Positions 13,024-40,079 of a DNA stretch of 64,000 nucleotides are shown piece after piece. The DNA comes from a virus. The translations under genes and the position numbers were made by a program. The notes beneath the pieces were generated by a model. It saw only the letters and a program-made list of their open reading frames with translations, searched no databases and was not told where the DNA came from. How positions within the stretch are numbered: the stretch's first letter is position 1; each line of letters begins with the position of its first letter. The stretch lies in the IMG/VR virus record IMGVR_UViG_3300045988_174813. One strand, given 5' to 3'.

Positions 13024-14316
13024 ATGTCGGACACAAAACAAAAACGCAATCCAGCGAAGTATGTTCCGCCCTACACTCTGGATTTCTCGCTAAACGATGC
13101 AACCGCACGTTAGAAACTTGTAGATAATGTGCTGAGCGCAATGGAACGCTCTGGACGCAAGCCCAACCAAAAAGACCTAGACTTACTATCTAACTATATT
13201 TTGTGCGGAGAAGATCCCGATGGCTACAACCCAGTACGCTCCAAAGACATAGAACTTGTCGGCTACTCCACTCCCGCACGGCCAAAAGAGTAGTCCCTGG
13301 AAGCCCTAGTGGAAAGTCCCACTTTTTCGGAGTCTCTCTTTCGCCAAGGCCCAACACGTTACACCATCCCAAAACCCAATCTGGAGCGCGCATCCTTCGA
13401 TCCATCCCTAAGTGTTGCGCCTGTCCCCCAAAACGATGGGGCCCGCGCTACACAATCAAACCAACAATCCGATTCTTCTCCTGCCTTGGAGTGTATGAGA
13501 GCTCTTTGGAAGCGTATTGACCGCCTAGATGATGCACTTACTAACCAAGGTCTAACCTCCCAACAAACCTACCACCTACGCAAACTTCTCCTCGAACTTC
13601 GTCGAGAACAATACACCATTGGCGACTTCATAAAACCCCAAATACAACTCCATTCAGTTGTGTAGGATAAATATCGAGGGGGAGAAGAAACCCAAGGACT
13701 TCTTTGGGATACGGACGCATTTCCCATACTTCCTATGGGCCTGTATAATGCGCGTCATCCTTAGACTAAATTCTCTAAACCATATACTATAAACTTACCT
13801 GATGAGCCTTTGCGCGAGCCAAAGAACAATTGCTTCTTGGACTTCCGTAATTGGAAGCACATTTACTGGATGAATGAGTTTAGAGAAGATTTGGAAGATT
13901 GGAGTGTGGGTGATGCGGAAAGCGCGATCCCCGCCTTATACGCCACGTTGGACTTTTACACTAATCTTGCCCATTTGCGCCCCGCGCAAAAACTTATATT
14001 CCAACTAAAATCCCAAAATTACACCAACGAGTTCATTTGTAGGGTACTACACGAAAAGTTGGGGGTAGACTACAGTGAACCCTACATTTCCACTATATAT
14101 ACCAAGCAAATTTGTAAAGGAATAGCCAATGCCGCGCAACTCCATTGGGATACTTTTTGCGCGCGTAAGAACCCCAAAAGCTTCAAACAGTGTAAGGATT
14201 GTGGAGCAGTGCTACTTATGGATGGGCGCAATTTTGCCCAGTCTTCCCGTAATGCGGGGGGATGGAATTGCAGGTGTAAGTGGTGTGAGAGATAGAAACG
14301 TAAGGCCCAGTAGTAA
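13024..14316 (+). CDS. first gene of the rightward operon, 430 aa with 6 in-frame TAG; HTH-like segment plus C-terminal zinc ribbon (regulator or DNA-recognition subunit?)
   Basis: Joins track ORFs 13309-13665 and 13810-14295 (same frame, separated only by TAG) and ends in TAA. ..LRPAQKLIFQLKSQNYTNEFICRVLHEKLGVDYSEPYISTIY.. resembles sigma region 4 / HTH. CKDC...CRCKWC. The SD is far (15 nt) from the ATG. Confidence 0.55.
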
Positions 14317-14482
14317 TTGGGCATTTTATACAATAATCTATATAAAAGATGGATAAATTTTTGGACTGCGCGCACAGACAATTGCGTAGTCTTGGAGGAA
14401 CACATTGCGTTATAGTAAGATAAAGAAATAGATTGGAGTTGAAGTAAGCTCCGAAGAACTACTTCACTTTGTGGAGTAGAGT

Positions 14483-14983
14483 ATGAAGTTGAATCCTGTA
14501 GAGTTTATGGGACTTTTGAAGATTATGTGTGTTGATGGCTGGGTGAGAGGATGTCCTAGGGTGGGGGGTAGTTTATTGGGAAACTAGGAAAATGAAGTGC
14601 CTAGTAGTTCCCCTCTTGAGCCTGCTACGCAGGCTCAAGAGGCAGAAGAAATTGGATTTACTTCCGAATCGCAGGTGCGCGAGCCCATGAATTTGTAGAA
14701 TGGAGAGATATCCATTGAGGAAAATGATGCTACCCGCGCCCTCAAAATAGATAGTGTAAGTGAGACATCCAATTGTGAGTCTAATTTAGATTGCGCGGGC
14801 TCCATAAAAATGGAGCATGAAACCAAACTAAAATCTAAATCTCACCGAACTACGCGGCCTCTTGAGGAAATGTTATCTGAGGTAATTGATACATACCTCA
14901 CCCTTGGACGAAAACAACGTCAAGAAATAGCGGTTCTCTTATATTAGATAACCGAAGAAAAGGAAAAGAAAACTTAGAAATAA
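14483..14983 (+). CDS. hypothetical protein, 166 aa with 4 in-frame TAG
   Basis: Single frame open except for TAG, ends in TAA. Low-complexity acidic/Ser-rich middle. The start is uncertain because the frame stays open upstream. Confidence 0.4.
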
Positions 14984-14994
14984 GGAGGCTAGAT

Positions 14995-15966
14995 ATGCCG
15001 ACACCGAAGAAAAAAGTTATTTTCCAAGATTGTGAGAAATGCGGGCGCACGTATGATAGTTCTAATTATCTTCCCACCCGCTCTCCGCTTTGTCCTTCTG
15101 GATATATTCATATTTGTAATAGGTGTTTAGAAAAGTGGTTCGCAGAACAGCCAGAAGAAACCAAATGGGAGGCTATTGATAAGATTTGTTAGTTAGTTGA
15201 TGTTCCATTTATTCCTGCACGATGGTAGAAATTGTATGATGACCAAAAAGAAAAAGCAATTTCTACTTATGTAGCAATATTCTAGTCTGCGGAGTATTCT
15301 CATATTGGTTGGCGCGAATACCAAAAAAAGTATGAAGAACTACGAGAAGAAGGTACATTAGACTACCAAGTTATCCCCGGATTAGAAGCTCAACGGCGCG
15401 AAGAACTAAAATCCAAATGGGGTTCGAACTATGATGATGAAGAGCTACAATATCTAGAACGTCTTTTCTAGGGTGTATAGAATACCCAAAACATCAATGG
15501 TGACCTTCAAATGGACCAAGCGTTGAAACTTTGTAAGTTGAGCTTGATTATTGATAGTCGTATTCGTGAAGGCGCGGATATTGATAAGATGCTTGGGTCT
15601 TATGAAAAGTTGGTAAAAATCGGAGAATTTACACCTAAGAACGCAAAGAATGCAGAGGATTTTGATAGTATTGGCGAGCTTGCGGCTTATCTTGAAAAGA
15701 CTGGTTTTGTAAATAAGTTTTATGATGGAGTAAAACGAGATATTGTTGATATTACAATGAACAATATTTAGAATTTTTGCCAAAGGCTTTATACTCAAGA
15801 GCCAGGTATTGGCGAAGAAATTACAAAACGTATTGAGGCTCTCCAAACGGCAAAAGATATTGAAGATTCTATGGGTCTATTGGATAATTATGCAAGTGAT
15901 GAAATGACTCAAGAAGTTGATGATTATTTTGAGTCGGAAGATTTTGACCCAGGGGTGATTGAATGA
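14995..15966 (+). CDS. putative terminase small subunit / DNA-recognition protein, 323 aa with 6 in-frame TAG (hand count)
   Basis: AGGAGG SD; N-terminal zinc ribbon CEKCG...CNRC; joins track ORFs 14995 and 15511 in frame; stop TGA overlaps the terL ATG (ATGA). Function inferred from position only. Confidence 0.5.
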
Positions 15967-17759
15967 TTGACACACCTGGTAGCATAATTACTAAAAGCTG
16001 TTTAGTAGCTACTTAGAAATTTTATAAGAATGGATTTGAAGTTGAAAAGGGAGTTATATTGACTCAACAAAAGATTGAATCTAATCGTAAATTATATGAA
16101 TATTATATAAATTTATTTACGGCTTACCCCGATCTTTATCTTGATTTGATCACTCCTTCTTATGATAGCTTTAGTCTCTTCTTTTATCAACGCATATTTA
16201 TTCGTGCGTCTATGCGTTATCGCTATCACTTTTGTACAGCTACACGCGCGTTCTCAAAAACTTTTGTATCAGTTTTAGCACTCATCTTGAAGTGCATTTT
16301 TCTTCCTGGCACTAAAGCATTCGTAGTTGCCCCTAATAAAAGCTAGGCTGCAAAAAATACTAAGGAAAAAATAGTTGAGATTTATTAGCATTTCCCTCTT
16401 TTGAGAAAAGAGATAATTGGTGGAGATATAAGCGATATGCCTGGCAATTTCGGCAAAGATTATATTACTTTGACTTTTAAAAATCATTCAGTACTTGATA
16501 TAGTCGGCGCATTAGATTCTACTCGTGGCGGACGTAGAAATGCTGGCCTGATTGATGAGGTGCGCGACCACGATGCGGATGCATTGAATAGCGTTGTTAT
16601 TCCTCTATTGAACGTTGCACGTCGTATGCCAAACGGAGAAGTAAATCCTTATGAACCACATCAAGCATAGTTATATATGACATCAGCTTCAATGAAATCT
16701 ACATATTGTTATGAAAAATTGGTTGAGCTTTTTGAACAAGAAATAATTGACCCACATAGTTGTTTCGTATGGGGGACTTCTTATCAAGTACCAATGGCTC
16801 ATGGTCTTATAAGTAAATAGTTTATTAATGAAGTACGTAGTGCGAGTACTTTCAAATCTGATGATTTTGCAAGAGAATATTGTAGTATATATACAGGCGG
16901 TTCGAATGAGTCTTGGTTCAACTACGACCGTATTTCTAAATATCGAAAAATTGTAAATCCAGAAACTCATCGAAAAAATATGAGCGACCACGATTTTTTC
17001 TACTTATTATCAGTGGATGTTGGCCGAATCGGTTGTCAAACTGTTGTTAGTGTTTTCAAGGTTTTTCGAAATCCAGAGGGCTTCAGAAGTAACCTTGTAA
17101 ATATGTATATACTTGGCAAACACGATTATGACCGCCATATGGAATACCAAGTGCGCGATTTGAAACGTATTATAAAAGCTTTTGATCCATTAGAGGTTGT
17201 GATAGATGGTAATGGACTTGGGGTATCAATGCTTGATTTTATGGCGCGACCCACTTTCGATAGTGAAGAAGGTATAATGTATTCTGCATACGGTAGTTTC
17301 AATGATGAAGATATGAAGAAAACTCAACCTCGTGATGCTATTTAGATTATTTATGTTATCAAAGCAAATACAAAGTTGAATAGTGAAATTCATAGTAATT
17401 GCTATTCGCGCCTTTATAGCGGGAAAGTTGGCTTACTCATAAAAGAACAAGAAGCTAAAAATAAGTTGATGGCAACTAAAGTAGGCCAAAAAATGAGCGT
17501 AGAAGACCGCGCGAAGCGCTTACTGCCCCATGAAATAACTACACGCCTATGCGATGAGTTAGGTAATTTACGTCTCAAACAAACTGGCAATCAGCAAGAT
17601 ATCGTGCTTGAACAAATCAATTCTCGATTTGGAAAAGATAAATTCTCTTCTTTCGAATATGGGCTATGGCGCATCAAAGAATTAGAAGATGAATACACTA
17701 AAAAGAAAGCCAAACGAATTGGCAAACGTATTTTGACCTTCTATACGGAGGCGAAATAA
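15963..17759 (+). CDS. terL: terminase large subunit, 598 aa with 6 in-frame TAG
   Basis: Joins track ORFs 16059, 16401, 16980 and 17376 (all in frame with 15963, breaks only at TAG). P-loop-like TATRAFSKT, Walker B GLIDEVRD, C-terminal nuclease-like LSVDVGR..VIDGNGLG. Confidence 0.8.
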
Positions 17760-17771
17760 AAGGAGGTATAA

Positions 17772-19292
17772 ATGGAAAACCAAAATGAAACCCCTAAACG
17801 CCTCCATGACTTTTCACTTGACGCTTTCAAAGCTTCTATAAATGCTATGATAGCCACTAGTGATAGTGGTTATCGTAGTATATATGAAATTGGAAGATTG
17901 CGCCGAGTAAAAGAATACAACGAGGAAGAAATAAAACGTATTATAGATAGTGGCACTTTACAATAGCAATAGGATTTATCTTACTCTTATTATTCTATTG
18001 ATGGCTTCTATCGTAGAATTTGCATTTATTATGCAACAATTCTAAAGTATTTAGGTATACTAATTCCAGACCCTGTATTTGGACATAGCATTATAGAAGA
18101 AAATATCTCTCGTCGTTATCACAAAGCCTTAGACTTTATTGACAAAGCGTCTATCCCCGCCTTAGCAACTAATATGATGATAAAGGCAGTAGTATATGGC
18201 GTATATTACGGAGTAATACAAACGCTGGACAAGGAACATTTTGCAATTTTAGACTTACCTGTTGGTTATTGTTATACACGGTATAAAGATGCTAGTGGAA
18301 ATGACCTTATTGAGTTTGATTTACGCTATTTTGCCACTTTGAGCGAAGCTGACGGTACTAGAGAGCGTGCTCTACGCGCTTATCCAAAAGAGATAGTGCG
18401 CGCTTGGAAACGCTGGGAGAATGGAAAGGGGAGCCAATATTATCTCATTCCTTCATCTATTGGAATTTGTATTCCCTTTTTTGATGGCCGTCCTTTTTTC
18501 TTGCCCGCTATTCCCTCAATTGTAAATTATCGTGATTATGAAGCAATGGAAAAAAAGAAGGACGCAGATGAAATAAAGAAAATACTTATTCAAAAAATTC
18601 CCCATCTTACAACCAACGGTGAACTTCTTTTTGAACCTCCTGAAGCTGAAGAAATTCATCGTGGCACTGTCAATATGTTGAAGAATAATAGTAATATTAG
18701 TGTGCTTACAACATACGCAGATGTAGATGTATAGGGAACTAACACTCAAAATGAAAGTGTGACAAAAAATAATCTTGAAAAGATTGCAAATACCGTTTAT
18801 CGCTCTGCTGGAGTAAGTGCTAATATTTTTGCTTCTACAAGCAATTTAGCTTTGACGGTATCGCTTCAAAATGACCTTGCGATGGTTATGCCCGTTGCGC
18901 AAAAAATTGCAAATGTGTTTACTAACGCAGTAAATGCTATGTTTAGCAACTCTAATATAAGGTTCAAATATAATATTTTACCTATTAGTTACTACAACGA
19001 AAAAGAATTTCTTGATAACACTTATAAAGGTGCGACTACTGGATATAGTTTTATTCTTCCGGCTTTGGCTATGGGGCTAAATCAAAAGGATATTGTAAAT
19101 GTGAAAGACCTTGAGAATGATTTACTTGGTTTGCGCGAACGCCTTATTCCACTTCAAACCTCATATACTGAAAGTAATAAAACTACTGGTAATGGTGCAG
19201 GGAGACCTACCTTACCAGATGATTAGAAATCAGATAAAACAATTCGCAATATCCAATCTCAAGGTGCGAGTGATGAAGGGGGCAATGAATAA
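17772..19292 (+). CDS. portal protein, 506 aa with 4 in-frame TAG
   Basis: AGGAGG SD; joins track ORFs 17772, 18174 and 18759 in frame; position directly after terL; length and composition are typical of a portal; ends in TAA. Confidence 0.7.
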
Positions 19293-20683
19293 TGGAAGAC
19301 CAGTTGAAAGACTTTCAACGGCAACTTCAAGTAGTTGTCTACGAAATAAAATCAAAATTTAACGAAATTAGTAGCATAGCCCGTGCACGCATTTTTTATA
19401 AGGGGTAGAATAGGAATGCTACTTATATAACAGAGGAGTTCGCGGAAAAACTTTTGGCTACAGTTCCTTATACTCCAGTAAAGGGTATTTGGGATGAAAC
19501 TAAAGGAGATTTTCTTGACCACGGCGAAAGTCGCACGCAAGGTAAGATTTACGGCGTTGTGCTGGCTGAACCTAATTTTGCTTGGGAAGACTTCATAGAT
19601 AAGGATGGAATTACGCGCACCTATGCTTGTGTTGATGTTCTTGTGTATACTGAAATCTATCCTGAAGCAAAATATATTGTCGGGAAATCATTGTCGATGG
19701 AATTACTTCCAAAGACAATAAAAGGTAAATGGGAAGATATAGATGGAACACAAGTTTATGTGTTTTCTGAAGCTTCTTTTGCCGGCCTCCAAGCTTTAGG
19801 TGATGATGTGGAGCCTTGCTTTGAGGGCGCGGCCTTCTTCGAACTTTTCAACCAAATGTAGGAACTCTACAGTAAAATACAGCAATATAATTTGAAATCA
19901 GGAGGAAAGAGCATGGAAATCAATTTCAAGCTTTCTGATAGTCAGAAGTATGATTTGATTTGGAAAGCCGTAAATCCTGAATATACAGAGGAAGGCGGTT
20001 GGGTGTGTTCCACCTCCGTTTGCGATGTATATGATGATTACGCATTGTGCTATGACTACGAAAATTCACAATATTTTCGTCAGTATTACACAAAGAATGA
20101 GGATAGCATTACTCTCGGTGATAAAGTAAATGCCTATATTATTGAAGTCAATGAGAGTGAAATGAATGCCCTTAATGCTCTGCGCGCCCTCAATGGTGGC
20201 AACTATGAGAAGATTGATGAGAATTACACTGCTTTGAAAGAGCAAAATGAGCAATTCTCTGCTACTATTACTGAGCGTGATGCGAGTATCGAGGAGTACA
20301 ACACGCAGATTACCAATCTCCAGAATGAGCTTGAAACTGCGAATAATAATTTAGCTACTGCGCAGGCTGACCTTGAAGTTGCAAATAATTCTCTTAACGA
20401 AGTCACCACAGAGCGTGATAGCTTGAAAGATTACCAGCATACTGTTGAAACTGGTAACAAGCAAAAGATTATTGAAAAATATGCTTTGAAGTTGGATGAT
20501 GAAGTCGTCGCTAACTACACTGCGAAGATTGATGAGTATACTGTGGAAAGCCTTGAAAAGGACCTCTCTTATGAGCTTGTTAAGGCCACACCGTCTATCT
20601 TTTCGGCTACTGAGCCGACTGTTATTCCCAAGGCGGACACCCCGCTCTCTGGAATTGAAGCAATTTTGAATCAATATAAGTAA
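19292..20683 (+). CDS. putative prohead protease (XkdF-like?) fused in frame through TAG to a coiled-coil scaffold protein, 463 aa if read through
   Basis: TAATG coupling to the portal; joins track ORFs 19454 and 19892 in frame. The C-terminal half is a coiled coil (NLQNELETANNNLATAQADLEVANNSL). An internal AGGAGG plus ATG at 19913 could also give a separate scaffold product. The protease call is weak. Confidence 0.5.
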
Positions 20684-20699
20684 TGGAGGGTAAAACCTA

Positions 20700-21245
20700 A
20701 TGAGCAAGAAATTTGAAATCGATCTCTACTCTCAGTTAGAGTTGAATAACGTTGCCTTCCGCCGCGATGGTCGTATTGAGGCCCAGTGTGCGTTAGATGA
20801 AGGCTTTAGTGAAGCCCCTGCCGAAAATGGTATGCTTCTTGCCGTTGACAAGGCCAATGGTCTTATCAAGCTTCCTGTTGATGGCTCTCTTCCAATTGCT
20901 CTGAATTATACTGCTGAGCATATGTATGACGAGCGCAAGATGGGTCTGAAGAACTTCTGCCTCCGTCCTGAAGATGGCTTCTATCCTCGCATGGGCTATC
21001 TTTCTGTGGGAGATCTTTTTACCACAAACTGCCTTTGCTATAATGAGACAGATTATACTACTCAGAATGCTCTTGAAGAGGCTCTTGGCAAGCTTGGCGA
21101 GACTGCTGTTTATGGTGGCGCTGATGCTTCTGGCCGTATCTGCCTCTCGAAGGAAAAGCCTGCCTTTGGTCCTGTGCTCAAGGCCGTCAAGTTCTATACC
21201 ATGCCTAACGGCGAGCCTGGCGTGAAGTTCCAGGTTATTGGTTAA
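20700..21245 (+). CDS. virion protein (head decoration or accessory?), 181 aa, no TAG
   Basis: Intact ORF with SD GGAGGG, between the scaffold and the major capsid gene. Confidence 0.65.
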   Translation: MSKKFEIDLYSQLELNNVAFRRDGRIEAQCALDEGFSEAPAENGMLLAVDKANGLIKLPVDGSLPIALNYTAEHMYDERKMGLKNFCLRPEDGFYPRMGYLSVGDLFTTNCLCYNETDYTTQNALEEALGKLGETAVYGGADASGRICLSKEKPAFGPVLKAVKFYTMPNGEPGVKFQVIG

Positions 21246-21266
21246 TCTAAGGAGGAGGTAAATATA

Positions 21267-22316
21267 ATGGCTACTATTGCTGAAATCAAAGAATTAGCTC
21301 TTCATGCAGCCAAGGGTACTGCTCCTGCTAATTTTAGTGAGAAGAATGTAAATGATGCTCTTCGTGGCGAAATGGCCGCGATGTGCAGTTCTATCAATGA
21401 GTTCCGTCGTAATCAATATGATATTTTCCAGATTATGATTGAGACTGCGGATGAGGTTGTTCCTCCCAAAGTCATTGCCCGTATGGGTTCTTTCGCGGAA
21501 ATCAAGTCTGTTTCTCAGGGAACAAAGGCTATCTTCCGTAAGAAGCTCGGCAAGAACCGCGCGAAGAGCTTTGTAACTCGCGTTGGTCTTTCTGGCGTAT
21601 ATGAAACCTTCCGTCTTGATGCTGAAGAGTATGAAGTCAGTGCGAAGGCTGTTGGCTCTGCCGGCACGATTGACTTTGAACGTTTCCTTGATGGCGCTGA
21701 AAGCATGGCTGATATTATGGAGATTATTGTTGAAGGTCTTGAAGATGCGGCCTACATTGAAGTTGCTCGTTGCTTGATAGGTAGCTTGAATAATGTCAAG
21801 CGTCCTGCCGCGAACCAGTATATTGATAGCGCTTTCAATGCTGCGAACCTTCAGAAGCTTGTCAACACCGTGAAGATGTATGGCGATGGCGCTGTTATTT
21901 TCGCGGCTCCTGAGTTCATCGCTGCTATGGGTCCTGACGCGATTGTTCCTGCGATTGCTGGTGTCGCCCAGGGTATTTATTCTCCTGATGATATCGAGAG
22001 CATTCACAATCTTGGCCGTATTCGTATTTTCCGTGGTTGCCCGATTGTGGAGATTCCTCAAGGTTTTGTTGACGAAAGCAATACTTCTACTTGGATTAAT
22101 CCTCAGTTTGCTTATGTCTTCCCCGCTGGCCGTGAGAAGGTTGTTAAGTTCGTATTCGAGGGCGATACTCAGATGTGGCTTAGTGATAACCGCGACCAGT
22201 CTATGGAGGTTAACTTCTATAAGAAGATGGGCGCCGCCATCCATACTTTCAATAACTGGGGTATCTATCAGAATACCGGCATTGCCGATACTTCTGCTCA
22301 ACCCTACGGTTTCTAA
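21267..22316 (+). CDS. major capsid protein, 349 aa, no TAG
   Basis: AGGAGGAGG SD; position after the scaffold; size and strong codon bias (long stop-free antisense shadow) are typical of a highly expressed HK97-fold capsid gene. Confidence 0.75.
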   Translation: MATIAEIKELALHAAKGTAPANFSEKNVNDALRGEMAAMCSSINEFRRNQYDIFQIMIETADEVVPPKVIARMGSFAEIKSVSQGTKAIFRKKLGKNRAKSFVTRVGLSGVYETFRLDAEEYEVSAKAVGSAGTIDFERFLDGAESMADIMEIIVEGLEDAAYIEVARCLIGSLNNVKRPAANQYIDSAFNAANLQKLVNTVKMYGDGAVIFAAPEFIAAMGPDAIVPAIAGVAQGIYSPDDIESIHNLGRIRIFRGCPIVEIPQGFVDESNTSTWINPQFAYVFPAGREKVVKFVFEGDTQMWLSDNRDQSMEVNFYKKMGAAIHTFNNWGIYQNTGIADTSAQPYGF

Positions 22317-22390
22317 TCTAGATAACTAATTTATAATATAGGTGGGGAGGTTATCAACCTCCCCAACCGGAGTAAAAGGAGAGAATTATA

Positions 22391-22873
22391 ATGGATGCTG
22401 AATATAAAGTAAAAGTTTCCAGTCAGTGTACTGGTCATGTGGGACTTACAGTTCCAAATCGCAATTTTGTGCGCAATTGGTCAAAGAAAGGACAAACAAT
22501 ACCTATTCCTTTTGAAGTCCTTGAAGAAGCAATTTTTGATGAGGGCTTTATGAATATGATAAATCAAGGTATACTTCATATTGATGACCTTGCGGCTGCT
22601 AAAGCTCTTGGTATTGAGCCAGAGGACGCAAAGATGCCTGTAAATCATAAAGTATATTCTGACGGTGATTTGAAGTATATGTTGAATTTTGATAAGCAAG
22701 CTGACTTTGAAGAAAAGTTTTTGACTATGCCTCGTGAATAGCAAATGCAGTTAGTTGATATGGCTGTAGATATGCGTGTGCGCGATGGCGATAAAATTGC
22801 TTTTATCAAGAAGATTCTTGGAGTAGATATTGATAAGGAGATTTCTTTTGACCTTCGAATGAAGGAGGAGTAA
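22391..22873 (+). CDS. hypothetical head-associated protein, 160 aa with 1 TAG
   Basis: Track ORF 22391-22741 continues in frame through TAG to the TAA at 22871. Confidence 0.6.
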
Positions 22874-22874
22874 T

Positions 22875-23306
22875 ATGAGCACTCCTTATTCACAAGTGTA
22901 TGATGCATTCACTTCGAAAATTCTCGACGATGAATGGCAGACTTGGGATGACCCTGAAATGGTTGCTGCGGATATGCGCCAACTACTTGAAGATGGGATT
23001 GTACATTTCAAGTTCCCCCGAACTTCTCTTACAAGAGATGACGATGGTTTTATCAATACTCTGAATGCCACTGAAATTCAGATTATTGCTACATATATGA
23101 AAATTGAGTGGTTAGATAGATGTATTTTGACGTGGCAACATTTGAAGCCACTGTATAGTGAAGCTGACTTTTCTCAAGCAAATCTTATTGACAAGTTTAC
23201 CAAATTACTTGATAAGGAATGGACACGCGCCCGCAAACTGGAAGCAAATTACTACCGTTCTGTGGATGAAAAGCCGTGGCCTTTCCGTAATATGGCGGGT
23301 AATTGA
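22875..23306 (+). CDS. putative head-tail connector/adaptor, 143 aa
   Basis: AGGAGGAG SD; position and N-terminus (YSQVYDAFTSKILDDEW) are typical of gp6-like connectors. Inferred. Confidence 0.55.
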   Translation: MSTPYSQVYDAFTSKILDDEWQTWDDPEMVAADMRQLLEDGIVHFKFPRTSLTRDDDGFINTLNATEIQIIATYMKIEWLDRCILTWQHLKPLYSEADFSQANLIDKFTKLLDKEWTRARKLEANYYRSVDEKPWPFRNMAGN

Positions 23307-23307
23307 T

Positions 23308-23580
23308 ATGGAACAACTTGATGAAAAGACAGTATGGGATGGGTATATAAATTAGTTTCGCAATAAATTATTTGGACTTCTTTGTGAATTTGAGAAACAG
23401 GGAGAATGGGAAAAATTTCTCGATAGCCTATTGATTGAATTAGGTGGTTTTGATAGCTCCCATAGGTCTATAAATTATTATAAATTGTCTCATAATATGA
23501 ATTAGTTGCGCTATGTGAGATATGAATATTTTCGTAGCATAATTTTTGAATGTATGGGACTTTTGTCGAAGATAAAATGA
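23308..23580 (+). CDS. hypothetical neck protein, 90 aa with 2 TAG
   Basis: Starts 1 nt after the previous TGA; single frame broken only by TAG; its TGA overlaps the next ATG (ATGA). Confidence 0.5.
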
Positions 23581-24281
23581 ATTATTATGATGAAGTTTAT
23601 TTGAAACGTCTAAATAGATATGGGACTGATTTTGCTTCACGGGTGCAAGGTCAGCGCGAAGCTGATTGGATGAGATATAAGTCTATGTCTACTTACAGGG
23701 TTGAATTTGAGGATGAAGAAGGGAATAAACTTTCTGGAACTCTTGAACCAAATAAGTAGGATGAGACGGAAACTACTCAATGGTTGCTTTTAGATTTGGA
23801 TAAAAAGTATCCTGGAGGTACTATTTTTCTAATTTCTGGAAAGCATAGCGAGAATCGCTGGATGATTTTGTTTTTGCGCGAGACACAATCAAAAGGCTAT
23901 AACAAATATATGGTGCTAAAACTGACCCATCTTATTCAGTGGAAAGATAGGGCGGGCGCGCAACATGAAAGTTGGGGATACTTTTATGGGAAAATGGACC
24001 GCATTATTTATGATGTAATTCGTTCTACAGCAAAGAACCCCAATTATCAAGACCCAGATAAAGAAACTCATATTATTATGCCGACCACTAAAGATTTGAA
24101 ACGAGAAGATTATCTCGTTATTGATGAAGAGGGGTATATTGTAACTGGTTATGATTTGAGTTCTACGCCTGGAGTTGAATATTTTAGTTTGAAAGAGACA
24201 ATGGTGCGAGATACTACACCAGTTGATATTGTTGGTGAAACTGGTGATGATACTTTCTGGCTTACAGGAGGTAATGAGTGA
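23577..24281 (+). CDS. hypothetical neck/tail-joining protein, 234 aa with 1 TAG
   Basis: Joins track ORFs 23550 and 23784 in frame; TGATG coupling to the next gene. Confidence 0.55.
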
Positions 24282-24760
24282 TGGGAGTAAGAAATCTAGG
24301 AGAAATGGGGCAAAACTTACAAAAGATAATAAAGCGTTTACTTGCTAATTAGAACCTTTGTAAGTTATTATATTATACTGATAAAGACCCCTTGAACGGA
24401 GAAGATATCTCTGATACTACAATTCTTTATGGTAAGCAAATTACTATAAATCCACAATATAATCCCGCTGAAAAGGATTATAGTGTTGTTATTCCAATGG
24501 TATAGCATGGTCGGCGCGGAAAGAATGATGAATTTACAGATATACTTATTCGTATTTATATCTATGTTCCGCAAACCCAGTGGATTATAAAAAGTGATAA
24601 TTTGCGCCCGTATCTTATTCTTGGCGAATTACAAAACAGTTTGGAAGATAAGAATATAAATGGGCTAGGAACCATCAATTGTAGTGATTTTGTTTTGAAC
24701 ATGGTTACAGAACAAATGACTAGCTACTATATAGATTTCAACATTACTCAATTTGCATAA
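24281..24760 (+). CDS. hypothetical tail-completion/neck protein, 159 aa with 2 TAG
   Basis: Single frame broken only by TAG; TAATG coupling to the next gene. Confidence 0.5.
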
Positions 24761-25473
24761 TGATTGAAGAAGCATTCATAGGTTATCCAATAAACTTTTA
24801 GGATATTTGCTTGGTATATCCGCCTTTCAATAAAGATATAATTGCATTTGGATATTAGAAATTTATGGTGCTTACGTCTCTTTTGACACAAACCCAAGAC
24901 GACATAGATGATTAGTTAGCTGATGCAAAGTTAGACCAAAATCCAACTCCTTTTTAGCAACTATTTCTTTAGGCTACTTTATATCCTCCAATGAAATCAC
25001 ATATTTGTGAAATTTTGAAGTTTTTTACTCATATGGATATCAGGCTATTACCAGAGATTGGTGGTATAGTATTTGGAGAAGTGACTGAAAAGCGCATTAT
25101 TACAGAAGAGAACTTTTTTGATTTTCAAAATGTAATTCGCGCGGTCATAGGCAATAAACTAGAAGAAAAGCCTAAAGAAAATGAAAACCCACGTATTCGA
25201 CGTATGAAAGCATTATCTCGAAAAAGAGATAGAATAAAAGCTAAGTAGCATAAAGCACCACAAGAACTACTTACTTTACTTACTTCGGTATGCTGTATGA
25301 ATACTGGACTAAATCCATCTAATGTCGGTGAAATTACTTATGCAGCGACTAAGTCGCTTATAGATAGATATACCGAAAAGGATGCGTATGAGACACGCAC
25401 CGCTGCGATGCTTGCTGGAGCAGAGAGTGAAGGCAAGGAACAAACTTATTGGATTCGAGACTTAGATAGCTGA
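24760..25473 (+). CDS. hypothetical structural protein, 237 aa with 6 TAG
   Basis: Contains track ORF 24991-25248 in frame; ends in TGA at 25471. Confidence 0.5.
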
Positions 25474-27262: not shown

Positions 27263-30200
27263 ATGGCACAGAATACGTTAGAGATTGTTGCGAAAGTAAG
27301 GGCTGATACTACAGAGGCTCAGAAGAAATTTTAGCAACTGTTTGCAGAGTTTAAGAATTTTAACATAGATTCACGCGCAGGAACAGAAGTAGCAAAAAGT
27401 TTTGAATAGGTCAATAAAGCCCTTGATAAATTGTCTATGGCTGGCAATAATATTGCTGGGGGCAAGGCTAGTGTAGATTAGCTACAAGCACTGTAGCGTG
27501 CAAGTATAGACGTCGATAAAGCAATTGGCAATTTAAATCATACTTTAGGTAAGATTAGTGGGTCTAGTTTTAATTTTGATATAGATACGCCAGCAATTAC
27601 AAAAACAAAATAGGAAATTGAATCACTTTAGAAAACTCTTTCTGGGTCGTATGTTGACGCTTTAGAGAAAGCCAAACAAGCTTAGATAAAACTTTCTGCA
27701 AGTGGCTATGAGAAACCTATTGGGGGCTATTCTGATTTACTTGATGCTCTTTCGGCGCAAGATTTTGATAAAGCAAAACAAAATCTTACAAAGTTAGAGA
27801 ATAATATTGATATAACTGCGAACTAGATTGGTGCAAAAATCTAGAACCTAAAAACTTCTATTGAAAATTCTGTAAAAAGCAAAGAGGGCACTTTAGTTCC
27901 TTTTGAAACATTTCGTAACGATATAAAGTCTGCTTTAAATAAGGTTAAAGCAGATTTAGATGATTTTAATCAATCTATTGAGAATACTGCGAAAAAAAAT
28001 GATATTTTTACGAATTTTCTCGGGAAACTGGGCGATAATAAAGGGGTTGAAGAATTAAAAAGCTAGCTAGAAGAAGTAAAACGCACTTTAGCTAATTTCA
28101 CTCTAAAAGACGCCACAAAACTGAAAACCCAACTCGAATAGATTTGGGAAACATATACAGACACTAAACGTCCAGACAGCATCTCTGCATAGGCATGGTC
28201 GGGTTTTGGTCGTGCTTTTTAGACACGAATGGGAGATGGCGGTGCTTTCCAAGAACTAATTCAATCTGGAGAGAGGGCATCATAGATAGTTGATAATTTA
28301 AAAACTAAATTAAGTTCTTTTATGGGTGAAGCTGCAAATTTAAAAATCAAGGGCGACTTTACTAATATGGTTAAAGGGCTTAATTTAGATAATTTAGATA
28401 TAGGCAATTTTGACCAACTAATTGATCAAAAAATATAGAATATTAAAAAGTCTATTGCAAATTTACGCATAACTTCTAGTGATGCTTTAACTATAAAGGA
28501 TTAGGAAAAATAGCTTGCCGCGTTGCAGAATTTTAAGACTGCTATTCACGATGCTTTTGGACAGACAACCTAGAATTTAGTGACAGATACTCGTGATAAA
28601 CTACAGCAAGCATTAACAACACTTAGCGGACAAAACCAGGAGCGAGCGTAGGGCGCGCTAGAAACATTTCAGTAGTATTTTCAAACAGTATCCTCTACAG
28701 GAGATAATCTCCTTGGTGCTACTAGCAGCATAGAAACAACTACTTAGGCGATAATAAGATAGAAAGAAGAACTAAGTCAGGTAGTTTCACGTTTTGCTTA
28801 TTTTGGAACCGCTGCTGGTATCTTGAGAACCTTTAGTAGAGTTGTTCGTAGTGCTTTCTAGTCAGTAAAAGAGTTAGACGAAGCAATGAATAATATTGCA
28901 GTCGTAACAGATTATACAACAAAAGATTTGTGGAATTAGATTGATGCATATACTGCCATGGCTCAAGCTACAGGTTCTACAATCAAGGGCTCTTATGAGG
29001 TCGCACAATTATATTACCAGCAAGGTCTTACTGATGCAGAGGTAATGGCGGCTACGAATGAGACACTTAAAATGGCTCGCATTTCAAATATTGATTATGC
29101 GGCAGCGACTGACTATGCGACAGCGGCAGTCAAAGGATTTGGATTGGCTTACCAAGACTTGGCGCATATCAATGATGTGTATTCTAACCTTGCGGCAAAA
29201 ACTGCGGCGGACACCGAGGAAATATCTATTGCTATGAGTAAGGTGGCTTCCATTGCACATAGTACTGGTATGGAATTAGAGACTACAGCAGCATTCTTGA
29301 CATAGATTATCGCCACAACACGAGAGGCTCCTGAAACTGCTGGTACGGCATTGAAGACAGTTATTGCAAGATTTGCTGAAGTTAAAAAGTTAATTTCGCA
29401 AGGAGAAGTTACAGGTACTGACGAAGAAGGTACTGAAGTTAGTGTAAATAAGATTGAAGAGGCATTAAAAACTGCTGGTGTTGCATTACGTGATACTACT
29501 GGTTAGATGCGTGATTTAGATGATGTATTTATTGAACTTGCTTCTCGTTGGGACAGTTTGGATACTATGTAGCAGAGATATATTGCTACTTAGGCTGCGG
29601 GTTCGCGCCAGCAAAGCCGTTTCTTGGCAATGATGAATGACTATGAAGGATTGCAAGAGACATTGGGCTATGCTATGGATAGTGCGGGTGCATCACAAGA
29701 ATAGTTTAATAAGACATTAGATAGTTTGCAAAGTAAGTTAAATAATTTATCTAACGCCTGGACAGAATTTACTACTGGTATTGCTAATTCTGCGGCTATA
29801 AAAGGTACGGTTGATATTCTTACCAAAATACTTGATGTTATAAATGATTTGACTGGCGCACTTGGCAATTTCGGAGGAACTACTTCGAAAATTTTATTAC
29901 TTTTTAGCGGATTGAGATATGGCACTGGTGCAATGGGGAATATATTGAAATTGTTAGGAGTGCCTACAAAAGTTCCAACTATAGGAGATTAGTGGAGTAC
30001 TGGTTTTGGGAGCATTTTTAATGGTCTAAAAGCCGTAAAAAGTAGTAAGCTTGTTCGCACCCAAGAAGTATTATTTGCTCAAAATGAACTAGCCGGTTTT
30101 GAAAGAATGCGCAGTTCATTGGCACAGCAGCTTTTTGCCGCTGAAGATGCGGGCGATATTTTAGGCGCACAAAAATATGGTAAATCATTAGAAGAGTCGA

Positions 30201-33200
30201 ATGCCGAATTACTTGTTTTATAGACAAATTTAGCAAATGCATCAGCAGCCGCCGGAAGCGCGGGGGCGAGCTTTAAGGCCTTTTGGGGCGCATTATCTGC
30301 TCCAGCAAAAGTGTCTGTTGTAATTGCGGGGTTGACTGCTGTAGTTGCTATTATTTAGTTATTCGCAAAATGGATAAAAACTGCAAAAGAGCGAGCAGAA
30401 GAATTTTAGCAACAAATCCAAGACCTGACTTCGATGGCGCAAGAGCTTAATGATTTAGAATCTACCCTTAGAGACTACTAGAGCTATAATGAGGGGATAA
30501 AAAATAAGAACGGCAAGGTAGTTGAGCAAGATTTTTCCACTTTGGTAAAAGGGGTTGGGACATATGGTCAAAATCTTACTCTTACCACAGATGAGTATGA
30601 TAGATATCTAGAAATTTGTGATGCCATTATTGCGAAAAATCCGAAATTGGCGGAAGGATATGATAGTAATGCCGAAGCTATTGCTAACAATAAAGAAGCA
30701 TTAATAGAACTAATTGCAGAGTAGCAAAAGTAGATTCAAACGTAGGGAAAATAGATAAGCGCCCAAATGGATGCTAATTTTTTCAAAAACACTAAAGGTC
30801 AAGCAAAAACTTATTAGAATGAGATAAAATAGGCTAATCAAGATAAAGCTATGCTTGGTGCCGAAAATCTTGGAGACATTTGGAATAAGGCTGGTATATC
30901 ATTCAAAGACTTCAATCTGTTTGGTCGAGCGATAGATGTTAACTAGACTTCCTTATCGGGTCTTATACAAAATTATGATTATTATAGGGACCAAATTAAA
31001 TAGAGACTTAAAGATAAAGATAAGTAGGAGAGAGCACTGTTAGCTCTTCAAACTTATTAGAGCTATTATAATAATGAGATGGAAAAATATGACTCTGTAA
31101 TAGATAACGCTAATTAGGGATTAGAAGACTAGAAAGATACTATAAAGGATATGTATATAGCAATGCTTCCTGGTATTGATGGATGGACTGAATTGTCAGA
31201 TGCTCAGCAATCTTTTATAGAGCAAAGTATTAGGAACCAAGATGTAAATATTTTTGATGCGGGTTCAATGAGCCGGTAGAAACAAGAAATCAAAAACTCT
31301 GTGGAAGAAATGTAGGAAACTTTTAAGATTAAAATTCCTGTTTCTTTTGGGGAAGAACCATCAGTAAATTATAGTTTTGGGGATATAATTGAGGAGCTTG
31401 GTTCTGGAGAATTTTAGTCATTAGGAATAAATGCTGGACTAGAGTGGCTTGATGGATTTTATTAGGCAATATTGAGTTATGGTGAGAAACATACAGATGC
31501 CCAACAATCTATAATGAATTTATTTGGTTTTTCTGGAAGTTGGGAAGATTTTGGCAAATTGGGAGCAAGCGGCTTTGCAGAGACAACTTATGGTTCTTCT
31601 TATACTGATAGAAAAGATGATATGCAAAAATTTGCTATGAAAAGACAAGAAGAGCGTTATGGCACATAGAGTTTACCATATACAGAAAGTGGGCTTGAGG
31701 GTACTGCATCAAGTTGGTATAATTGGCTTGCTGGACTAAGTGGCGATACAGCGAATATAATAATAGACCATTATAGTGAATTAGTTACAGCCCTAAATAA
31801 TAAAGGTGAAGAAGTTACTAAAAATACCTTAGAGCAGGCCGCCAAAGAATATCTAGATGCTGTTACTAATGTAGAAGAAATGATTAAAAAAGCGACAAAA
31901 GCTGGTTTGGATGAAGATAATATTAAGGCTGTTAAGGAATACTATGATGACTTATATAAAGACGAAGATATTGGTTCGTCCTTAACAACAGAGGTAGCAA
32001 TCAATGCGATAGCCTAGAAAGAAGCAGTTGATGAAATATCTTCAAGCTATGAGAATTGGGTTAGTTTATTAGAAGATGCTGGTAATGATATAGACCATCT
32101 AACTACAGATTAGATACTTGCTTTTGACGAAATGAGCGATGCGTTAAGAAAGCTTTTTGGATTAAATGAAAACTTTAAAATTAATAAAGATATTCTAAAA
32201 AGTCCAAAAGTTTTTGATTTAATGCAGAAAGCTGCTGAGGGAGATGCAGACGCAATAGAAGAATTAGGCGATATAATTAGTGAAGACTTTGGTAAGGCTA
32301 TCAATAAAACCGCTAAAGAACTTAATGAGGCTAATAAAGAAACAGAAAATTATACGCCAATTATGGAAGATTTAGCTGGAGGAATGGATCGGCTAGGCGA
32401 AATGATGCAAACTGGCGAATATCTTTCTTTTGCAGATATGGACCAAGGTATGTAGGACACTATTTCTGGTTTTTAGACTTTACTTGATGCTGGAGTGGCG
32501 ACTGTTGATTAGGTACAAGCATACGCATCTGCTAATGGTATTGTCCTTGATATTCAAGAAAGTGATGCTGAAATGGAAGATGTACCTGGTAAGATTAGTT
32601 ATGAAGCTAAAGGCGTTACCACATTAATGGGATAGGAGTATCCTTCAGAAATGACTATGACTGGTACTTCTTCAGTTCCTATGCCTAAAATTGTTGGAGC
32701 ATCCAAGCCTGGCAGTAGTGGTGGAAAGAAACCTTCTGGTGGTGGAGGCGGAGGCGGTTCAAAACCCACTAAACCCAAACAAGACCCCTTCTACAACTAC
32801 ATCAAAACCGTAGATGACTACAAAAAGCATCTCGAATCTCTCCAAGACGTCCAAGAGCTCCTCACCAAACCCGTTGATATCTTCAATAACACCAAAGCCC
32901 AAGAAGACTACTACAAAACTCTCCTTGGCTCTAACCAATCCTACCTCAATCACGTCAATTCCGAACTCGAACGTCTCCAAAAAGAAGCTCAATCTAAATA
33001 TTCCAAATACATCGAAGTATCTATTGACGGCTCTCTCCGTCTAACCGAAGAGTATTGGGCATCCACTGGTGATATCACCGAAGAACTTGATGAATGGATT
33101 GACGCTTATGATGACGTCCTTGGTCGTTAGAAAGACCTTACTGATGAAATCAACGATTATAAGAAAGAGCTAAAAGAACTTTGGGAAGGCTGGCGCGATA

Positions 33201-34321
33201 GTTTCATTGACCTCACTAATGATATTGCAGATGTGTTCCAAGAGCTTGATGAAAAATAGCTTGAAGACCGTCAAGAGTTTTATGAGAAGCTTGAAGAACA
33301 AGACCAACGCTATCTTGAAAGTGTGCGTAATAACATTGAGGAAGAACGTAAGGCGCGCGAACGTGCAAATAGTTTTGAAGACCTTCAAAAGAAGCAAAAT
33401 CGCTTAGCCCTGCTCCAGCGTGATAGTTCTGGTCGTTATGTAAATGATATTGCAGAACTTCAAGAAGAAATAAATTCCGACCAGCAAGATTTAGCTGATT
33501 AGAATGTGGATAATATTCTTGACACTCTTGAAAAGCAAATGGATAAAGATGCTGAGCGCCATCAAGATATTCTTGATGCAATGTAGAAGCAAATTGACAG
33601 TAATGTTGAAAATCGTATATACATTGAGCGCGCAGAGCAAACCATTGCGCAAGGCGAATAGGCTATTCTCGATGCCATTCATATGGGTGAGGATTGGCGT
33701 AATGCTTCTAACGCCGAACGTGAAAAGATGGATGAAGAGTAGGCTACAAATATTGCTGGGTCAAAGAACTATCTTGAAAAGTTGAATGAAGGTATTACTT
33801 CGTCTAGTGAGTATATATCTAAGATGGTTACAGATGCGCTTACTAAATAGACCGAAAGTCTTATTTGGACTATTGGTGATATTCCTCAAAATGATGAAGC
33901 CCATGTGGCACACGCAATGGAGACGACACTGCCTTCAATTCTTGAATAGTTCTTCGCGCGGACCAATACGGCCCAAGACATGGCAGATGACAATAAAGTT
34001 AGTGGTGCTAGATACGCTACAGGTGGTCTTGTAGACTACACTGGCCCCGCTTGGGTTGATGGCACTCCTGGTAAACCAGAAGCATTCCTCAATGCCAATC
34101 AAACTGCTATGATTGCTTCATTTACTGCTAATCTTGCAAAAATGATTTCTGGTAAATTCCCCTCTTCTAACGTAGAAGCAGGAAGTAATTGTGAAATCAA
34201 TATTGATATTGGTTCAATTGGCGCGGACTATGATATTGACCAAGCTATCAATAAAGTCAAACAAGAAATTGTAAATAGCGCGCAGTTCCGTAATGTAACA
34301 TTACTCAATCGCAGACGCTAA
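27263..34321 (+). CDS. tail tape measure protein, 2352 aa, dense in-frame TAG
   Basis: Track ORFs 28958, 29726, 30542, 31472, 32132, 32651 and 33980 are all in frame with the ATG at 27263, and breaks occur only at TAG. ORF 28958 (..AQLYYQQGLTDAEVMAATNETLKMARISNIDYAAATDYATAAVKGFG..) is the TP901-type tape-measure core. Ends in TAA. Confidence 0.85.
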
Positions 34322-34340
34322 ACACAAGGGAGGAAATAAA

Positions 34341-35414: not shown

Positions 35415-35425
35415 GGAGGTGCCAA

Positions 35426-38400: not shown

Positions 38401-39769
38401 TGACGGTAGTATTGCTTATGATGATACAGACCAAATAACTCTTGAACCGCGCAGAAAAAAGTGGGTAACACTTACATCTTATGCGGGCGCAGAAAATCCA
38501 GTAGGTTTTACATATGGTATCAATCTCACCAATCTTTCACGTACCATAAAAACAGATAGCTTGGTTACAAAGCTTTATGTTGACTATAGTGAAAATAACT
38601 ATACTTCTGACGGCTATGTTGCTATTAGTGGTGCAGAGGATAATATAAGTAAGGAAAATGTTCTTTACAATTTTGATTATTTTATTCAAGTTGGCTTGCT
38701 TGAAAAGATGCAGGTATATAACGATTTTTATAAAATAGAGAGTAGTGAGGTGTCCGCGCAAGACCCATTAGAAATGAAGTGCGTAATTGAGGCTAATGGT
38801 AAAAATGGTCCAGGTTACCTTCGTTTGCTTGGCTTGCTGAATACTTAGTATGATAAATTGAGCGAACAAATAAATGGCGCAACAGGATACAGTTATCAAG
38901 CCATCCATTTGAAAGAAATGCTTTCTGCATATAGCTATGCTTCTGCTTTTACAGTAGATGCAACTATTACAGGGCAGGGGGTTGCTCCTTCAATTGGTAC
39001 TTCTACAACAGAGGATTAGGAAACGCTTTAGCGTCTCACTAAAGAGTATAATCGTGTTTCTGCATAGCTGGCCGCCGCGAAAAAGCAACTTGCAAAAATT
39101 GTGGCTCGTAAACAAGAGCTTGAACGTAAATTCAATCAACGCTATGCACGCTATATTCAAGAAGGTAACTGGACAAGTAGTGACTATATTGATAGTGATA
39201 GCTACTATGCAGATGCCTTGAAGGTTAGTAATGATGGCGCGAAGCCTAGTATCAATTATAACTTTACTGCAATTGACCTTTATGCATTACCAGAGTATAA
39301 AGATTATAAGTTCTGTATAGGTGACCGCACTTGGATAGAAGATACAGAGTATTTTGGTTATGAAGAGGATGGCACACCATACCATGAAAGTGTTATTCTT
39401 ACGGAAATAAATTATGACTTGGATAATGCATCTGCATCTACCTTTGCAGTATAGAATTATTCTAACAAGTTTGATGATTTGTTCTAGACCCTTTCTGCAA
39501 CGGCAAATTCATTCAGTCTCAATCAACAGATGTATGGGCGCGCGAGCAAGCTTCTTACTTCTGGCGGGTTGAATGATGAAACTACCCAGAAGAGCCTTAC
39601 ATCTAATAAAGAACTAACTCTTATGTCAAGTTCTGCTATTTAGTTTGATAATGATGGTATTATATTTACCAATGTAGCAAACCCAAATCAAATATTACGC
39701 ATAGGTAGTGATGGTATTTCAATGTCAAATAACGGTGGCGCGAGCTACGACCAACGCCTAATGTGGTAA
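35426..39769 (+). CDS. tail-associated/minor structural protein (Tal, prophage-tail endopeptidase family), 1447 aa, many TAG
   Basis: AGGAGG SD. Track ORFs 35861, 36395, 37019, 37283, 37988 and 39101 are all in frame. Segments such as ..IQEGNWTSSDYIDSDSYYADA.. are typical of Gram-positive siphophage minor structural proteins. Ends in TAA. Confidence 0.75.
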
Positions 39770-39779
39770 TAATTCACTT

Positions 39780-40079
39780 ATGAAAGAATTGACAACACTC
39801 TATCAAATTATCTATGATGATTTGAAAGATAGTGATATGCTTATTGGATATGCGAAAGAACTAAAAGATAGCAACAAATAGCTTGCGGATATTTATATGA
39901 CAGATGCTAAGAATAGGCTTGCGCATTCTCAATAGATGCATAAATAGTTTACCTCTATCGTTCAAGCAATGGGAGAGAATGGTGAGAAAGAAAAGGTGGC
40001 AGATTGTTTATGGGAAGCAACTCATAAACATTATATGGAATGGTTTGAAAATTTAGAAAATTGTATAAAGAAATGGTAA
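39780..40079 (+). CDS. hypothetical protein, 99 aa with 3 TAG, last gene of the rightward operon
   Basis: Single frame broken only by TAG; TAA followed by a strong terminator. Confidence 0.45.

Follow-up and report, generated by a model that had tools for sequence, protein, structure and literature searches.

A TAG-recoded virion module in a 64-kb fragment of an SPbeta-like phage genome, with TAG most likely read as glutamine

We analyzed a 64,000-nucleotide stretch of viral DNA (IMG/VR virus record IMGVR_UViG_3300045988_174813, hereafter the window), whose virion genes are written with TAG as a sense codon, most likely for glutamine (Gln). The window has a G+C content of 38%, and strand bias divides it into three blocks: minus at 2–13 kb, plus at 13–40 kb and minus at 40–64 kb. 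The central plus-strand block consists of 20 tightly spaced genes, from a sigma-factor-like gene through the head genes to the tail genes (Table 1), whose 8841 codons include 139 in-frame TAG and 0 in-frame TAA or TGA. The two other frames of these genes contain 346 and 888 TAA plus TGA codons, and, with the off-frame stop proportions taken as the model, 139 in-frame stops would consist solely of TAG with a probability of ~1e-94. Open reading frames (ORFs) of at least 150 amino acids cover 30% of positions 13,000–40,100 under the standard code (translation table 11) and 96% when TAG is read as sense (table 15); control reassignments of TGA and TAA to sense give 39% and 56%, respectively. A first-pass annotation, made from the letters of the window alone, had claimed that the gene fragments are split only by TAG and that reading TAG as sense restores full-length genes, and had proposed comparing the two tables; the claim stands, and the comparison yields a clear, TAG-specific gain.

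The organization of the rebuilt genes is consistent with this reading of the code. Their junctions include ATGA twice, TAATG twice and TGATG once, with gaps of 10–26 nucleotides and GGAGG ahead of the start elsewhere, in agreement with the start/stop coupling that had been taken as the mark of an operon. All 48 tabulated genes and all 16 ORFs of the early-region cassettes described below terminate in TAA or TGA, never TAG; the two sets overlap partly, and each cassette ORF was followed as far as its first TAA, TAG or TGA. The earlier statement that every rebuilt gene ends in TAA or TGA holds in this tabulation and follows in part, by construction, from calling genes with TAG as sense. The coordinates that had been given for the terminase large subunit (TerL), the portal, the tape measure and the two tail genes that follow it proved exact, as did the hand counts, including the 24 TAG among the first 565 codons of the tape measure. 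Profile alignments cross many TAG codons, not only in the portal but also over residues 479–1968 of the tape measure and residues 3–568 of the RecJ-like exonuclease of the replication module. The tape measure matched 15 PHROG families (14 of them annotated as tape measure), with phrog_4211 (E 1.2e-50) aligning over the residues just given and phrog_1272 over residues 414–2115. The base 3′ of TAG shows no special context relative to the base 3′ of CAA or CAG (chi-square p = 0.68), which gives no indication that weak termination contexts have been selected.

Profile searches bore out the identities that had been proposed for TerL, the portal, the tape measure and the distal tail protein (Dit). 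The large protein that had been called Tal fared less well: it has no Pfam Prophage_tail match and no PDB sequence match, and gene order plus one weak PHROG match only faintly favor the label. Pfam did not recognize TerL, the portal or the capsid protein, all three of which PHROGs did recognize, and the sigma-factor-like product has no Pfam match. Precomputed Pfam matches on identical public gene calls comprise PF27364 (YonB capsid), PF27290 (YonD_N) and PF27256 (YomW), and these matches identify the virion module as SPbeta-like. A tblastn search with the capsid protein returned matches to SPbeta-like Staphylococcus, Bacillus and Enterococcus phages, and the same protein is present on several ENA and Logan contigs; the 122,567-bp scaffold_150 of ENA ERZ28573108 (BRIT16-1_SAMN02334021) has an identical capsid gene. 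The prediction that a standard annotation would reduce this region to junk is half right: under table 11 the 27 kb of virion genes, together with several replication genes, break into short ORFs and become unreadable, but a public protein collection already holds full-length calls, the complete portal among them.

Reference libraries carry a possible trace of such mis-calls. Two PHROG families of ‘unknown function’, the 245-position phrog_15503 and the 230-position phrog_24618, each align with half of TerL and outscore the TerL family itself. They may have been built from table-11 TerL fragments of recoded phages, and fragment families of this kind seem to arise from table-11 gene calling.

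Table 1. Features of the window, with strand, number of in-frame TAG codons and supporting matches.
Feature	Coordinates	Strand	TAG	Matches and remarks
Early region	1806–12669	−	0	Palindrome/promoter cassettes; genes end in TAA or TGA
Sigma-factor-like, first late gene	13024–14316	+	6	phrog_5767 ‘sigma factor’, E 3.8e-11
Gene without known family	14483–14983	+	4	
Gene upstream of TerL	14995–15966	+	6	phrog_3314
TerL, 598 amino acids	15963–17759	+	6	phrog_2, E 1.5e-14, residues 66–455, across TAG
Portal, 506 amino acids	17772–19292	+	4	phrog_2739, E 1.3e-60, residues 40–497
YonD_N-like head protein, 463 amino acids	19292–20683	+	2	phrog_3313; PF27290 YonD_N on identical gene call
Head gene, 181 amino acids	20700–21245	+	0	No family match; ‘scaffold-like’ only from its position before the capsid gene
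Major capsid protein, YonB family	21267–22316	+	0	phrog_4088; PF27364 YonB
Six head-completion/connector genes	22391–25473	+	1, 0, 2, 1, 2, 6	TAG per gene, in order
Last of these six genes	24760–25473	+		phrog_4051
Tail-tube-like	25500–26303	+	0	phrog_2729, E 3.5e-50
Tail-tube-like paralogue	26433–27215	+	3	phrog_2729, E 3e-12
Tail tape measure	27263–34321	+	65	2352 codons; 0 TAA/TGA
Dit, 357 amino acids	34341–35414	+	7	Pfam Sipho_tail, E 2.8e-9 (above cut-off); phrog_33, E 3.7e-24
Large tail protein in Tal position, 1447 amino acids	35426–39769	+	21	phrog_6211 ‘minor tail protein’, E 6.4e-10, residues 1206–1442
Last plus-strand gene, 99 amino acids	39780–40079	+	3	
Replication and nucleotide-metabolism module, 18 genes	40113–63837	−	21	7416 codons; 9/18 ORFs TAG-bearing
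RuvC-like resolvase		−	5	
dUTPase		−	0	
Pol III alpha		−	0	
RecJ-like exonuclease		−	4	
DnaB-like helicase		−	1	
UvrD-like helicase		−	1	
GyrA-like and GyrB-like (gyrase/topoisomerase IV-like subunits)		−	0	
AAA_24 protein	in 40–64 kb block	−		
Ribonucleotide reductase (RNR), two parts	47075–50456	−		Pfam barrel positions 1–213 and 225–523

The residue that TAG encodes was assessed against relatives of the window phage. We found 25 IMG/VR loci through the capsid protein, most of which gain ORF coverage TAG-specifically, as the window does; L010, L013, L014 and L015, the standard-code relatives, are fully open without any reassignment. With these four as the comparison, Gln stands opposite TAG at 19 of 95 window positions, against a background of 3.4%, and the probability that the relative has Gln is 0.20 opposite a window TAG and 0.25 opposite a true Gln. 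A likelihood test with substitution profiles taken from the same alignments (natural-log units) gives Gln a lead of at least 30 log-likelihood units over any other residue in the comparison with the standard-code relatives, and of 123–210 units in three other comparisons, the reverse direction included. After Gln, the residues found most often opposite TAG are Glu and Lys. The data exclude Tyr, Trp and Leu, which face TAG at 0–6%, compared with ~50% expected for a true Tyr, Trp or Leu.

Codon exchanges and conserved alignment columns point in the same direction. In the near relatives L001 and L002, 36 of 42 differences from TAG to a non-TAG codon are to CAA or CAG. TAG column 66 of the gene at 14995–15966 holds Gln or TAG in 16/16 aligned relatives, TerL column 128 does so in all aligned relatives, TerL column 236 holds Gln in most, and column 117 of the gene at 22391–22873 is Gln in 25/25 relatives. 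Outside the virion module, column 321 of the RecJ-like protein is Gln in 120/120 database homologues. The UvrD-like helicase has its single TAG at codon 11, with the Lys of GKT 21 residues further on; this TAG aligns with PcrA Gln16 in the LNxxQxxAV Q-motif, precisely where an invariant Gln had been predicted. Relatives in independent assemblies from several samples have TAG at the window’s own TAG position in 129 relative-by-column comparisons, and the protein sequence is conserved downstream of each TAG. These patterns show TAG to be a sense codon, most likely for Gln, that evolves as a synonym of CAA and CAG; the first-pass assignment to Gln thus passes the tabulation against homologues that it had called for.

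A candidate decoder is present in related genomes. A tRNA with the anticodon CUA, tRNA(CUA), lies at L192:19597–19671, within a tRNA cluster of a related 122,864-bp contig (IMGVR_UViG_3300029716_000003; capsid protein 96% identical). It is preceded by TTGACT-N17-TATAAT, carries a U1·U72 mismatch, G73 and an encoded CCA, and scores 41.8 bits with the Rfam tRNA model. Provided that the related contig is circular and that the two sequences are collinear, this position would fall roughly 19–20 kb to the left of where the window begins. A second relative (L272) has this tRNA with one base changed, and each of the four related genomes examined has a tRNA(CUA) at the matching locus, intron-split in two of them. 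In the ENA relative L277 (9496–9843), a 273-nucleotide group I intron (Rfam 53 bits) separates U33 from C34, and splicing in silico yields a tRNA identical to the intron-free L272 allele and one base different from that of L192. A different tRNA(CUA) at L193:17998–18269 is split between U35 and A36 by a 196-nucleotide group I intron (Rfam 58.2 bits). Default ARAGORN missed both split genes, so these intron-bearing alleles suggest that suppressor tRNAs may be under-counted in recoded phages; we found no description of an intron-split suppressor tRNA in the searchable literature.

The tRNA(CUA) of the relatives has an ordinary cloverleaf, with a 2-nucleotide spacer between the acceptor stem and D-stem and a variable loop of ~5 nucleotides. 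Among the 288 tRNAs predicted across the retrieved DNA, only five have its odd T-loop, GAGCGTWAC. Three of these predictions are Sup(CUA), although L192 and L273 overlap and contribute a single gene twice; the remaining two are tRNA-Gln(UUG), one of which comes from the same genome. This shared T-loop, the informative feature of the molecule, marks the suppressor as a probable paralogue of tRNA-Gln. In Escherichia coli supE, a tRNA-Gln-type CUA molecule inserts Gln at UAG, giving partial suppression beside TAG terminators. U1 and G73 of the relatives’ tRNA(CUA) likewise fit the tRNA-Gln identity set; unlike the supE case, the window phage needs near-complete decoding, and TAG is purged as a terminator. 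Two ARAGORN calls were set aside: the label ‘Pyl’ for the tRNA(CUA), which reflects the CUA anticodon only, and a tmRNA at L193:16425–16822 (tag peptide ESALLETARVEAG), which is probably a false positive, with no Rfam tmRNA match at the gathering threshold.

Overall, we consider it highly probable that the window comes from an SPbeta-like siphovirus with genetic code 15, in which UAG is read as Gln, and represents roughly half of its ~123-kb genome. The Gln assignment is supported by four independent lines, namely the residue statistics, the CAA/CAG exchanges, the invariant Gln columns of the RecJ-like and UvrD-like proteins and the tRNA-Gln-like tRNA(CUA) of relatives. Judging from the four related genomes, the phage would carry its own amber-suppressor tRNA(CUA), paralogous to a phage tRNA-Gln(UUG), in a tRNA cluster outside the window and behind a consensus sigma-70-type promoter. 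Such a promoter would allow the host polymerase to make the tRNA early, and the host glutamine pathway would presumably charge it. In a temporal model after Borges et al., the TAG-free early genes would be readable at once, and the TAG-poor replication genes, followed by the TAG-rich virion genes, would yield full-length products only as the suppressor tRNA accumulates. From the TAG content of the tape measure, we computed that a 1% yield of full-length protein requires a per-codon decoding of at least 0.93, and a 50% yield one of at least 0.99. Because this protein needs 65 read-throughs, per-codon decoding must be near complete, far above classical partial suppression, and RF1 must therefore be outcompeted or disabled by means not seen in the window. 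The tape measure thus sets a hard lower bound on decoding efficiency and points to some mode of RF1 neutralization.

Several observations weigh against this interpretation or narrow it. Scans of the 64-kb window for tRNAs and Rfam families found neither, so the suppressor is deduced from relatives only, and the suppressor-bearing relatives, although 96–97% identical in capsid protein, have a codon identity of only 73–82%. Overall similarity assigns no isotype to the suppressor tRNA, which is 0.6–0.7 identical to many isotypes. No release factor, aminoacyl-tRNA synthetase (aaRS) or RF1 antagonist turned up in general library scans of window proteins. Glu ranks second among the residues opposite the relatives’ TAG codons, and a share of Glu is possible. 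Gln in the closest database homologue, P0001, may stem from code-15 gene calling, and the likelihood differences are inflated by the non-independence of the relatives; all lines of evidence nonetheless agree. In many Bacillota, which have no GlnRS, Gln-tRNA is instead formed by GluRS together with GatCAB, so the charging route proposed for a CUA-anticodon tRNA is tentative.

The same observations bear on the alternative that TAG is sense but specifies another residue (Glu, Lys, pyrrolysine, Trp, Tyr or Leu), which we regard as very unlikely. It draws on the rank of Glu and Lys just behind Gln, on the general knowledge that a tRNA-Gln-like molecule in Bacillota is first charged with Glu and on the ARAGORN label ‘Pyl’, uninformative as that is beyond the anticodon. 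The lead of Gln over Ser, His, Glu and Lys, however, is 30–36 log-likelihood units with the standard-code relatives and >120 units in the other sets; the CAA/CAG exchanges, the rarity of Tyr, Trp and Leu opposite TAG, the invariant RecJ-like column and the UvrD Q-motif match all speak against another residue, as do the ordinary cloverleaf and an odd T-loop common to tRNA-Gln only. As for pyrrolysine, tRNAs of the pylT type have a 1-nucleotide spacer, a 3-nucleotide variable loop and a small D-loop, and belong to a system that includes pylS and pylBCD. The scanned window proteins included none encoded by pyl genes, and we rejected pyrrolysine decoding in view of the normal cloverleaf, the tRNA-Gln T-loop and residue statistics that are not Lys-like. 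One suppressor (Sup-CTA) tRNA of phAss-1, a recoded gut siphovirus considered below, is most similar to a Dehalobacter tRNA (Babkin et al., PMC10607447), which is a further point for this alternative.

The remaining rivals concern whether the phage supplies its own decoder and whether TAG is decoded at all. Infection of a host in which TAG is already sense, or in which an amber suppressor is present, would explain a window without a tRNA, yet all four related genomes examined carry tRNA(CUA) at the matching locus, the clade includes standard-code members as well as cultured phages of standard-code Enterococcus and Bacillus, and the TAG-free early genes fit a start in a standard-code cell. No bacterium is known to read TAG as Gln. 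The detection of suppressor tRNAs in only 40% of TAG-recoded phage genomes (Borges et al., bioRxiv 10.1101/2021.08.26.457843) lends the host explanation some support, and we place its likelihood marginally below that of a different residue. That the TAG codons are real stops, in a decayed prophage with pseudogenes or through sequencing or assembly artefacts, strikes us as scarcely credible. Real stops would account for the short ORFs seen under table 11; they would not account for interruption by only one of the three stop codons, for sequence conservation past TAG, for the shared TAG positions in independent assemblies, for the recurrence of the same protein on ENA and Logan contigs or for the specific exchange of TAG with Gln codons.

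TAG-to-Gln recoding is already well documented, a related phage group included, as the first-pass annotation had anticipated for gut phages; the window adds another member. TAG-recoded phages were reportedly first noted by Ivanova et al. in 2014, and the survey of Borges et al. is said to have appeared later in Nature Microbiology. That survey of TAG-recoded gut phages described a late-gene bias and proposed the temporal model (bioRxiv 10.1101/2021.08.26.457843). As in those phages, the window phage has in-frame TAG concentrated in structural and late genes, early genes compatible with the standard code, an AT-rich genome, recoded homing endonuclease genes inside early genes, probably a phage-encoded suppressor tRNA (here deduced from relatives) and standard-code relatives at short phylogenetic distance. 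Unlike them, it is an SPbeta-like siphovirus with a YonB capsid, and its replication genes bear TAG, even at the catalytic Q-motif; no RF2 or aaRS turned up in the window, and the lysis-gene bias was glimpsed only in the relative L060.

The nearest described system is the phAss-1 group (proposed Phassvirus; Babkin et al. 2023, PMC10607447), gut siphoviruses of 120–140 kb with tRNA-Sup-CTA genes. Shared features are the human-gut siphovirus genome of 120–140 kb, Pol III alpha, a tape measure of great length that, like TerL and the portal, contains TAG, and probably, judging from relatives, tRNA-Sup-CTA without an aaRS of its own. By tblastn, the window capsid protein is 34% identical to that of phAss-1 and 31% identical to that of the standard-code Enterococcus phage EF1, both of which are fellow members of one wider group. 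A blastn search with the 6.3-kb segment from TerL to the capsid gene gave no match to phAss-1. Phassvirus is delimited by nucleotide identity above ~80%, shared synteny and a 1700-residue Hoc-like capsid protein; the head module of the window has no 1700-residue Hoc-like capsid gene of this kind. The two low capsid identities and the absence of a blastn match indicate a separate lineage of the wider SPbeta-like assemblage, not Phassvirus. Intron-split suppressor tRNA genes and TAG avoidance in abundant virion proteins, described below, are unreported for phAss-1 in Babkin et al.

NCBI taxonomy holds a ‘Caudoviricetes code 15 clade’. In crAss-like phages, code 15 is proven by metaproteomics (Peters et al. 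2022, PMC9523058) and is also covered by Yutin et al. 2021 (PMC7886860). Those phages likewise read late-gene TAG as Gln and have their own suppressor tRNAs, but they are unrelated, podovirus-like and associated with Bacteroidota, and direct peptide evidence, so far obtained only in crAss-like phages, sets them apart from the window phage. Among GenBank phages, a nucleotide search returned only a 4-kb fragment and no close relative of the window. A scan of species-representative genomes gave a single match, the 42-kb contig L059 (CAZJKC010000007.1; 59% capsid protein identity), whose ORF coverage rises from 0.35 under the standard code to 0.72 with either TAG or TAA as sense, which fits either reassignment. 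This contig, from an ‘uncultured Staphylococcaceae’ metagenome-assembled genome, is probably a phage contig binned into that assembly and is not host evidence. Code-15 phages thereby gain an SPbeta-like lineage of Bacillota-type phages in which standard-code and recoded members occur side by side, and such a mixed clade is good material for studying the origin of recoding.

The more interesting by-products of this analysis seem to be a clade-wide avoidance of TAG in the most abundant virion proteins, the intron-bearing and intron-free alleles of the suppressor and 22 promoter-palindrome cassettes. TAG had been presented as a trait of the virion module, and 16 of its 20 genes do bear it; however, four virion genes are TAG-free (20700–21245, the capsid gene, 22875–23306 and the tube-like gene), and the replication genes hold 21 TAG. 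Per 100 codons, TAG occurs at 0 in the early genes (0/1521), 0.28 in the replication genes (21/7416) and 1.57 in the late genes (139/8841); among the latter, the portal and TerL have densities of 0.8–1.0, and Dit, the Tal-like protein and the tape measure have 1.5–2.8. With the exception of 22875–23306, the TAG-free late genes prefer CAG over CAA, opposite to the other late genes. Their orthologues in 19–21 recoded relatives contain 1 TAG in 7327 codons (capsid), 1 in 3824 (20700–21245) and 4 in 4746 (tube-like), or 6 TAG in 15,897 codons for the three families combined. Most other late genes of the recoded relatives have ~0.2–2.7 TAG per 100 codons, seven of them above 1. This avoidance in the capsid, tube-like and 181-residue proteins suggests that TAG decoding is costly or limiting.

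A bolder proposal, which we put forward as a long shot, is that TAG serves as a graded translation brake and not merely as a synonym of CAA and CAG, with a density inverse to copies per virion across ~20 relatives. Decoder supply would then gate late synthesis, that of the sigma-like first late gene included, and in some relatives the code switch would include a further step at the RNA level, the splicing of a mobile group I intron, located in or beside the anticodon, out of the suppressor tRNA. If this were true, intron splitting would explain recoded phages reported without a suppressor by standard tRNA scans. The product of the sigma-like gene depends on suppression, since its six TAG include the last sense codon, which TAA follows immediately; a TAG-bearing sigma-like gene at the head of the late block could couple late transcription to the code switch. 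Just upstream of this gene, a 14-bp unit, CAAACCTAAAATTC, is repeated in ~7 tandem copies at 12833–12944.

Related DNA extends the late gene set beyond the right end of the window. In the relative L060, a second late block (13104–21800 and 21809–22846) encodes Ala/Gly/Thr-rich fibre-like proteins, of which one of 1006 residues is TAG-free, and a GH25-type lysin with 2 TAG, so that lysis in the clade also depends on TAG decoding.

Within the replication module, most TAG codons fall in the RuvC-like, homing endonuclease and RecJ-like genes. The RNR gene is in two parts, through either an intron or a true split, and between them sits a GIY-YIG homing endonuclease gene with 5 TAG, and Rfam found no group I intron in the interrupted gene, even at a relaxed threshold. 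A TAG at codon 2 of the downstream RNR piece may be non-coding.

The early region contains 22 copies of a perfect 21-bp palindrome, TCTAACCTA-N3-TAGGTTAGA, on the minus strand between 1806 and 10729. Most copies are followed by a near-consensus TTGAC(A/T)-N17-TATAAT promoter, a ribosome-binding site and a short TAG-free gene; the 16 cassette ORFs have no internal TAG, and the 1521 TAG-free early codons counted above belong to ten longer genes. From their sequence, the cassettes look like an array of early promoters sharing one operator for a putative repressor or activator. The palindrome has TAG on both strands, which gives rise to spurious ‘TAG-containing ORFs’ on the plus strand. Long plus-strand ‘ORFs’ at 2–12 kb (for example, 5491–6834) were rejected as antisense artefacts of the minus-strand early genes.

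At the left end, the leftmost window protein, encoded by a small helix-turn-helix-like gene (469–954), has no relative in IMG/VR. Adjoining this gene are direct repeats of ~22 bp (TTACATAAGG/ATGTAGGAAAAT-like) at 1067–1386, which resemble iterons and could mark a candidate replication origin.

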